Part shown: piece after piece, positions 12,985-13,195 of the stretch
Position numbering within the stretch: the stretch's first letter is position 1
How the letters are laid out: each line of letters opens with the position of its first letter
Sequence record: NC_052655.1
Length of the DNA: 64,000 bases
Strand: one strand, 5' to 3'
From: Escherichia phage alia
Notes under the pieces: generated by a model
Told to the model about the DNA's origin: nothing
Database searches by the model: none
Seen by the model: only the letters and a program-made list of their open reading frames with translations
Translations under genes and position numbers: made by a program

Positions 12985-13195
12985 AAATTATTTAAAGTTT
13001 TTACAGATTTTTGGATACAAATTTTGAAAATGAAAAGTTCAAGTTTGGTCAAAATTATTTAAAGTTTTTGTACGTATTTCTATCCAGATTTTGAAAATGA
13101 AAACTTCAATTTTTTAAAAATTCCCCAGTTTATTTAAAGTTTTTTTGCCTTTTTCCGTAGAAAAATCAAAAATGAAAAGTTCAATTTCGTGTTTT
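12985..13195. repeat. three tandem ~70-bp direct repeats
   Basis: TATTTAAAGTTTTT, variable 17-20 nt, then TTTGAAAATGAAAAGTTCAA; copies start near 12989, 13066, 13131. Confidence 0.6.

Follow-up and report, generated by a model that had tools for sequence, protein, structure and literature searches.

Three tandem direct repeats between positions 12985 and 13187 of the window (the whole 64,000-nucleotide stretch of phage DNA analysed here) form a unique, non-coding array, and three full tandem units are likewise present in every sampled lineage of the Stephanstirmvirinae and Vequintavirinae. Judged from its sequence, the array is most likely a dedicated cis-acting set of three binding sites for a sequence-specific DNA-binding protein. 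It would be best classed with the iteron-like or multi-site nucleoprotein arrays, inside a larger conserved non-coding module. The leading guess as to its role, put forward tentatively, is a transcription-activated replication origin.

The three-unit array and its setting

The source phage is an E. coli myophage of the genus Justusliebigvirus (phi92-like; Stephanstirmvirinae). Its region 11500-14500 is matched by 144 phage records, the best of them 94-96% identical. The array sits in a gene-poor stretch, with a NADAR-domain gene (12217-12768) to its left and the next plus-strand gene starting at 14298. The sole gene between 12768 and 14298 is a small one on the minus strand (13581-13847), and no open reading frame (ORF) of at least 40 amino acids is present on either strand from 12769 to 13434. 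The initial annotation was right to place the repeats between the end of the NADAR operon and a GC-rich island, and right about their adjacency to a cluster of Fur-box-like palindromes (13208-13318). The surrounding non-coding module spans about 800 bp and, by sequence comparison, is among the best conserved sequences across more than 240 genomes. In every record inspected both module and array are unannotated, save for repeat_region tags in anhysbys (on the palindromes) and tuntematon (near the locus). The searchable literature contains no description of the array or module, and no specific mention of iterons, Fur boxes or an origin for these phages.

The presence of three tandem direct repeats, as originally claimed, was confirmed by a repeat search, TRF, a motif search and a shuffle test. 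The units are as follows.

12985-13045: unit 1, with box 1 (TTATTTAAAGTTTTT) at 12988-13002, a T-tract spacer and box 2 (GAAAATGAAAAGTTCAA) at 13026-13042
13052-13112: unit 2, with box 1 at 13055-13069 and box 2 (GAAAATGAAAACTTCAA) at 13093-13109
13127-13187: unit 3, with box 1 at 13130-13144 and box 2 (AAAAATGAAAAGTTCAA) at 13168-13184

The repeat search returned one family of three copies (12968-13045, 13035-13112 and 13110-13187) with 71-73% identity to the reference, and TRF reported a period of 67 with a score of 185. The motif TATTTAAAGTTTTT occurs exactly at 12989, 13056 and 13131, and GAAAATGAAAAGTTCAA occurs with 0-1 mismatch at 13026, 13093 and 13168. The best three-copy tandem alignment (start 12985, offsets 67/75) has 44 matches in 60 positions; dinucleotide shuffles of the AT-rich core gave 28.2 +/- 1.5 matches, and none of the 300 reached 44. 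Each unit consists of TTATTTAAAGTTTTT, about 23 variable bases and then (G/A)AAAATGAAAA(G/C)TTCAA. The repeats had been described as two boxes separated by a variable 17-20 nt and recurring every 70 bp or so. The two-box design and the three copies hold; the intervening stretch is about 23 nt, and the spacing is 67 and 75 bp (unit starts at about 12985, 13052 and 13127) rather than uniform. Box 2 always begins 38 bp after the start of box 1, and the variation in spacing comes from the gap between units.

Boxes 1 and 2 occur three times each in the 64-kb window, in the array only. The complete genome of the close relative EmilieFrey (146,666 bp) also contains both boxes three times each, at the array locus only. 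A set of 72,556 plasmids yielded nothing similar to the repeats, with chance 31-nt matches only, and no similar DNA was found in 5,426 complete E. coli genomes. Thus, an origin of the repeats from the host or from plasmids was rejected.

Several other identities were considered for the repeats and discarded. A structured RNA finds no support, as the folding of either strand is no better than that of shuffled sequence (z = +0.36 and +0.66) and searches against Rfam and for tRNAs gave no match. A coding function was rejected on the lack of an ORF of at least 40 amino acids, and the ATG-led mini-ORFs (10, 6 and 19 amino acids) are not kept in Phapecoctavirus or the Klebsiella phage. A sigma70 promoter array, such as the T7 early promoters A1-A3, is contradicted by the single 9/12 site in the array (minus strand, 13082-13054, in unit 2), with no pattern common to the units; this and the confinement of the boxes to the locus also argue against a general promoter, operator or terminator motif. 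An array of phage-specific promoters does not fit boxes that are absent elsewhere in 146.7 kb and a box 1 that differs among lineages sharing their transcription apparatus, and a T4-late-like reading of TTTAAATA fails for the same divergence of box 1 between lineages. PhiTE, which belongs to the same family as the source phage, has its tandem-repeat pseudo-ToxI locus at 106.7 kb and the locus homologous to the array at 39.3 kb, which speaks against an antitoxin mimic of the pseudo-ToxI kind. ToxI-like RNA repeats are about 36 nt, form pseudoknots and vary in copy number, whereas the repeats here are about 70 nt, have no RNA structure and are fixed in copy number. Conserved DnaA boxes in the spacers were dismissed, since close relatives do not preserve the TATCC cores of the first two units (GGGTAC, GGCTAC). 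Finally, the units do not consistently resemble the consensus sites of IHF, Fis, ArgR, Lrp, OmpR, TyrR or sigma54 when compared by eye.

Conservation of the array among relatives

Within Justusliebigvirus, a 562-nt non-coding stretch is 95.4-98.2% identical between phages, with a length of 561-564 bp, and the surrounding 3 kb of the same phages is 94.4-95.5% identical. The non-coding stretch is more alike than its surroundings, which indicates slower evolution than that of the flanking genes (purifying selection), and its constant length points to a stable copy number. Apart from one exception, in a single phage, the few variable positions lie in the spacer that separates the two boxes of a unit.

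Homologous loci in other lineages were recovered with an anchor, the GC-rich block on the right-hand side of the array, which matches 244 phage records. The lineages sampled were Phapecoctavirus, two Klebsiella-type Stephanstirmvirinae, Seunavirus (PVP-SE1), Mydovirus (KB57 and Mydo), Certrevirus (phiTE, CR9 and metagenomic contigs), the rV5-like UPEC06, Henunavirus (Hena1) and pEp_SNUABM_01. Some of them add partial extra boxes to the three full units. The distance from the first to the third unit is 138-148 bp in all lineages measurable by script (Justusliebigvirus, Phapecoctavirus, the two Klebsiella-type Stephanstirmvirinae, Mydovirus, Certrevirus, rV5-like, Henunavirus and pEp_SNUABM_01); in PVP-SE1 the spacing, read by eye, is 76 + 66 bp. 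Across lineages, the unit-to-unit distance is 63-78 bp, and in those sampled the array is always directly left of one to five Fur-like palindromes and a leader.

Box 1 is TTATTTAAA in the Stephanstirmvirinae, TCTCGATCG (often with the palindromic core TCGATCGA) in Seuna-, Mydo- and Certrevirus, and ACTTGAGRGG in the rV5-like, Henunavirus and pEp_SNUABM_01 lineages. All sampled lineages share the T-tract/A-tract core TTTTSAAAATSGAAAA. Units within one genome are more alike than they are to the units of other lineages. Together with the lineage-specific box 1, this is what co-evolution of the sites with a cognate binding protein would be expected to produce. The putative binder is probably encoded by the phage, since box 1 is lineage-specific and the host-factor-like palindromes are constant across phages of different hosts. 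The initial annotation had named the repeat number and sequence in relatives as a check on its proposal; number and geometry proved to be kept across lineages, and the sequence of the units has turned over.

For the source phage, a wedge model predicts that no other 210-bp stretch of the 64 kb is as curved as the array, at 21.0 degrees; the runner-up reaches 16.6, and the mean is 10.6. The homologous arrays of PVP-SE1, KB57, Certrevirus and Hena1 have average curvature. The GC content of homologous arrays ranges from 0.18 to 0.49, being 18-22% in Stephanstirmvirinae, 33-49% in Vequintavirinae and 47-49% in Certrevirus. A static bend or an AT-rich unwinding element was therefore rejected as the conserved property. 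Geometry and specific boxes are preserved; base composition and static bending are not. The original rationale, which appealed to iterated AT-rich repeats, is weakened by these Certrevirus arrays, by a predicted curvature that is not conserved and by a spacing of about 70 bp, which is atypical for classical iterons.

Neighbouring palindromes, promoters and genes

The elements that accompany the array in the window are listed below, with promoters as predicted from their hexamers.

12756-12773, plus strand: left edge element, TGATATTT twice, across the NADAR stop codon
13208-13318: Fur-box-like palindrome cluster, with sites at 13208-13226, 13231-13249 and 13260-13278 and weaker ones at about 13284-13300 and 13302-13318
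13322-13327, plus strand: -10-like GAGAAT of a weak putative promoter read from the sequence, overlapped by the last Fur-like box
13325-13372: conserved GC-rich leader (..CGCGCAGGGGCGGTGTTTGTCTCGCGC..CCCCTCGCCAT), between the Fur-overlapped plus promoter and P2
13408-13381, minus strand: promoter P2, with -35 TTGCTT at 13408-13403, a 16-nt spacer and -10 TATTCT at 13386-13381
13422-13547, minus strand: block of about 125 nt, including TCTTTACA twice at 13422-13439
13578-13550, minus strand: promoter P1, TTGACA-17-TATACT, 11/12 by sigma70 scan
13581-13847, minus strand: small gene of 88 amino acids, phi92 gp224 homologue, with the HTH-like N-terminus GWQGGTVHQVA..TGL

Nine Fur-like sites lie within three mismatches of AATGAGAATCATTCTCATT, compared with 0.09 expected, and copies outside the cluster are confined to another non-coding region, at 24.3-25.5 kb. 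It is the neighbouring palindromes, and not the repeats, that match the Fur box consensus, as candidate Fur sites, and overlap a predicted promoter. That promoter reads TTGAAT-18-CAGAAT in several Vequintavirinae; here its -35 is poor. It is convergent with P2, which is directed leftward at the leader, the palindromes and the array. In the place of P2, other lineages have TTGATC, TTGCAA or TTGACC, a spacer of 16 or 17 and TATTAT, TATATT or GATAAT. The predicted convergent transcripts would overlap by about 40 nt in the leader, where the two promoters might act as a face-to-face switch. A further promoter on the minus strand, located between array and Fur boxes, was discarded, being present in PVP-SE1 and KB57 only.

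P1 fits the published early-promoter consensus of Certrevirus, AAAA(N3)TGTTGAC(N19)TATAAT (PMC7344957). Its spacer is a GC hairpin that also resembles a terminator of the small gene to the right. In most lineages P1 and P2 are at homologous positions, with conserved hexamers and variable spacers, and the two are predicted to be tandem, host-type sigma70 promoters aimed at the Fur palindromes and the array. The 125-nt block, which is 80-85% identical across the sampled genera of Vequintavirinae and Stephanstirmvirinae, probably corresponds to a non-coding RNA transcribed early from P1; it has no Rfam match, and covariation for an RNA structure is weak on both strands. An Aeromonas phage (Plateaulakevirus), in which the block is partly present, has it with a P2-like promoter and without palindromes or repeats. 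Thus, block and array are separable modules.

On the left, two to three copies of GATATTT form the edge of the conserved non-coding module in all sampled lineages. In the sampled Vequintavirinae and Stephanstirmvirinae, TGATATTT occurs two to three times across or just after the stop of the preceding gene and is followed by TTTCGAAATGG-like A/T tracts. The exact 10-mer AAGGGGTGTG is present at 12796, 25616 and 25694, all in the two large non-coding regions. At the first of these it opens a plus-strand hairpin (12797-12832, -16.4 kcal/mol) without a U tract; a minus-strand terminator left of the array was rejected, as the hairpin is stable on the plus strand only (-16.4 vs -7.7 kcal/mol). Further left, the gene at 10819-12216 encodes five CapR-homology repeats and a T5orf172 domain (homing-endonuclease-like). 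It is 465 amino acids long here, the EmilieFrey annotation is much shorter (978 nt) and the PVP-SE1 equivalent is an HNH endonuclease. Mobile endonuclease genes seem to be clustered left of the module.

On the right, the N-terminus of the gp224 homologue (GWQGGTVHQVA..TGL.V..VL.L) is common to Stephanstirmvirinae, the rV5-like phage and PhiTE, and has no Pfam match. In PVP-SE1, KB57 and Mydo an unrelated small protein takes the place of this homologue. Reading of the boxes by the product of this flanking HTH-like gene was rejected, since the gene does not co-vary with box-1 type. No candidate for a cognate initiator was identified beside the array, the sole adjacent DNA-binding-like gene (13581-13847) being the one that is replaced in three lineages.

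Candidate functions of the array

The initial annotation offered a replication origin or a multi-site regulatory region. The class is upheld, the array being a unique, non-coding and conserved cis array beside palindromes; the choice between the two is undecided. As an origin, the array might work as follows. Each unit would open with a lineage-specific recognition box, here TTATTTAAA, with a palindromic core TTTAAA, and the phased T-tracts and then A-tracts that follow the box would facilitate bending of the DNA. With all three units bound (about 140-210 bp), a single wrapped nucleoprotein complex could form, which would mark the origin of phage replication. P1 and P2 would fire toward the array through the Fur-like palindromes, and Fur or a Fur-like binder on these palindromes would gate P1/P2 transcription. 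We infer the binding of a protein, its encoding by the phage and the start of replication by the complex from sequence comparison.

An origin is favoured by a unique locus that is among the most conserved non-coding DNA of the genome, and by a repeat pattern resembling iterons that co-evolve with their initiator. It is also favoured by the combination of a T7-like replisome (family A polymerase and gp4-type primase-helicase, according to annotation and the rV5 paper) with tandem promoters resembling the T7 primary origin. Further, a skew analysis failed in the rV5 paper, which also shows a 'non-coding' box (PMC3606486). No report was found that maps the replication origin or the early regulatory circuitry of rV5-, phi92- or phAPEC8-like phages. 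Against an origin, the replication genes are 10-35 kb from the array, the unit spacing is unlike that of classical iterons, no candidate initiator gene was identified beside the array, AT-richness and curvature are not conserved, and Fur boxes are not known as a component of origins.

Iteron origins include lambda ori (four O-protein sites), P1 oriR, T4 oriE with RepEB iterons and P4 ori/crr. Classical iterons are 17-22 bp and helically phased (about 22 bp or multiples), and their cognate initiator is usually encoded nearby. The array resembles such origins in having multiple direct repeats at a unique non-coding locus, which are alike within a genome and differ between lineages. In addition, it shares with them bendable AT-rich DNA (in this genus), host-factor-like sites and predicted transcription toward or across the site. 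Unlike iterons, its units are about 70 bp rather than about 20 bp apart, at offsets that correspond to 6.4 and 7.1 helical turns and are out of phase. They are also composite (box, T-tracts and A-tracts) and only three in number, with no adjacent initiator gene identified, Fur-like rather than DnaA or IHF sites, and an AT-richness and curvature that hold in the genus only. At the T7 primary origin, tandem promoters (phi1.1A/1.1B) are followed by an AT-rich, easily opened region. The present locus is similar in its T7-like replisome, in P1 and P2 pointing in the same direction toward an AT-rich repeat region and, if the genome ends correspond to those of Schickermooser, in lying at a modest distance from one of them. 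It differs in that the promoters are of the sigma70 type and not of the phage-polymerase type, that palindromes and a GC-rich leader stand between promoter and AT-rich DNA, and that the AT-rich part is a structured three-unit array, which in Certrevirus is not AT-rich.

A more specific version, in which array, palindromes, convergent promoters and leader together make a previously undescribed, iron-gated, transcription-activated origin of all Vequintavirinae and Stephanstirmvirinae, is doubtful. A lineage-specific phage initiator would wrap about 200 bp, and host Fur would decide whether priming transcription arrives. If this version were true, phage DNA replication would be tied to the iron status of the host, with a related Fur-palindrome module in T5-like phages.

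A regulatory array without a role in replication is nearly as likely as an origin and ranks close behind it as a real possibility. A phage regulator, or looping, would control the Fur-overlapped plus promoter and P2, so that expression of the adjacent non-coding transcript(s) would be set by infection stage and iron status. The array lies about -60 to -270 from the Fur-overlapped plus promoter and just downstream of P2, its position relative to promoters and palindromes is kept in all sampled lineages, and the phage encodes several small putative transcription factors. The strong curvature predicted in the genus is common in the activating DNA upstream of promoters, but it is not kept in other lineages, and the plus promoter is weak or absent by consensus here (7/12). 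Moreover, 210 bp with three units of about 70 bp would be very large for the operators of one promoter, and boxes found nowhere else in the genome would imply a regulator with a single target. Much less probable is a site for DNA entry, anchoring or architecture, by analogy with the untranslated 'Repeat Region 3' of T5-like phages, a candidate injection stop signal (Davison, bioRxiv 10.1101/866236). Fur and a second binder would hold a segment about 8-10% from one genome end during entry or early infection. The T5-like Fur-like palindrome cluster is about 76-83% identical to the one here and lies beside other direct-repeat arrays in a large, conserved untranslated region, which is more conserved than the neighbouring genes and is likewise carried by a virulent coliphage. 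The distances from one end are also similar, at 8-9.5% for the array (with the Schickermooser ends) and 7.9% for the T5 first-step-transfer segment. However, the palindromes alone are shared: the T5 repeats (TGTGCAAATCCGAC eight times) are unrelated to the units, and the paired DnaA boxes of T5 have no conserved counterpart here. The injection-stop role of the T5 region is itself a proposal, and rV5, PVP-SE1 and PhiTE are described as circularly permuted, which leaves no fixed distance to an end. We know of no report of two-step injection in this phage group.

The least probable of the readings is a pac site, at which the units would bind the small terminase subunit and wrap bent DNA before the first cut. 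Three repeated, here putative, protein-binding elements within 120-200 bp of bent DNA at a unique position recall lambda cosB (R1-R3 and an IHF site) and SPP1 pacL/pacR, and lineage-specific boxes could co-evolve with a terminase subunit. In addition, two independently assembled 'circular' records (ETEC-TG, OR786310; phi1_175008, PP357458) break inside unit 1. The ends of these records overlap by about 100 nt, as left by an assembler, and a coverage dip in DNA of 18-22% GC is the simplest and probable cause, so that the record starts were rejected as termini; record boundaries are not enriched near the locus. Pac sites are usually in or beside terminase genes, and the large terminase gene here is about 70 kb from the array. 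The sole physical ends reported in the subfamily are those of the Phapecoctavirus Schickermooser, with a terminal repeat of 328 bp (Korf et al., PMC6563267). In its record the first 329 nt equal the last 329 nt, and the position of these ends relative to the array was mapped: they fall at about 24.8-25.6 kb of the window, some 12 kb rightward of it. The array would thus be about 12-14 kb (8-9.5%) from one end if the Schickermooser ends apply. With the ends and the terminase so placed, and with the breaks at assembler overlaps, a pac, cos or terminus role is unlikely, as judged from the sister genus and deposited records. Only slightly less improbable is that the array has no specific binder, being structural AT-rich DNA (for example, an H-NS target or decoy) or a decaying, functionless duplication. 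The low GC content and strong predicted curvature in Stephanstirmvirinae would suit such DNA, and no binding protein has been identified. Against this, the Certrevirus arrays are 47-49% GC and uncurved, yet have three units in the same geometry; the region is more conserved than its flanking genes, the copy number is invariant, and short, palindromic, lineage-specific boxes point to sequence-specific recognition.

Therapy cocktails make use of rV5-, phi92- and phAPEC8-like phages, which are among the most often isolated coliphages of broad host range. The three box-1 sites, the Fur-like palindromes and P1/P2 are defined here as testable elements. An origin would supply a cis element for work on replication, for shuttle vectors and for engineering, and a regulatory array would point to iron-responsive control in strictly lytic phages. 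Under either reading, a constant geometry with changing sequence offers a handle for finding the binding protein.

Two further observations concern the Fur-like palindromes. In the T5-like phage EC122, a five-copy palindrome cluster at 1590-1780 lies beside DnaA boxes and eight TGTGCAAATCCGAC repeats, so that the Fur-like palindrome element is common to two unrelated virulent coliphage families. In the present window, the second large non-coding region (about 24300-25940, 30% GC) has Fur-like palindromes at 24368, about 24425, about 25281 and 25465-25495. The physical ends of this phage type may lie in that region, and the terminal repeat of Schickermooser itself has Fur-like boxes.
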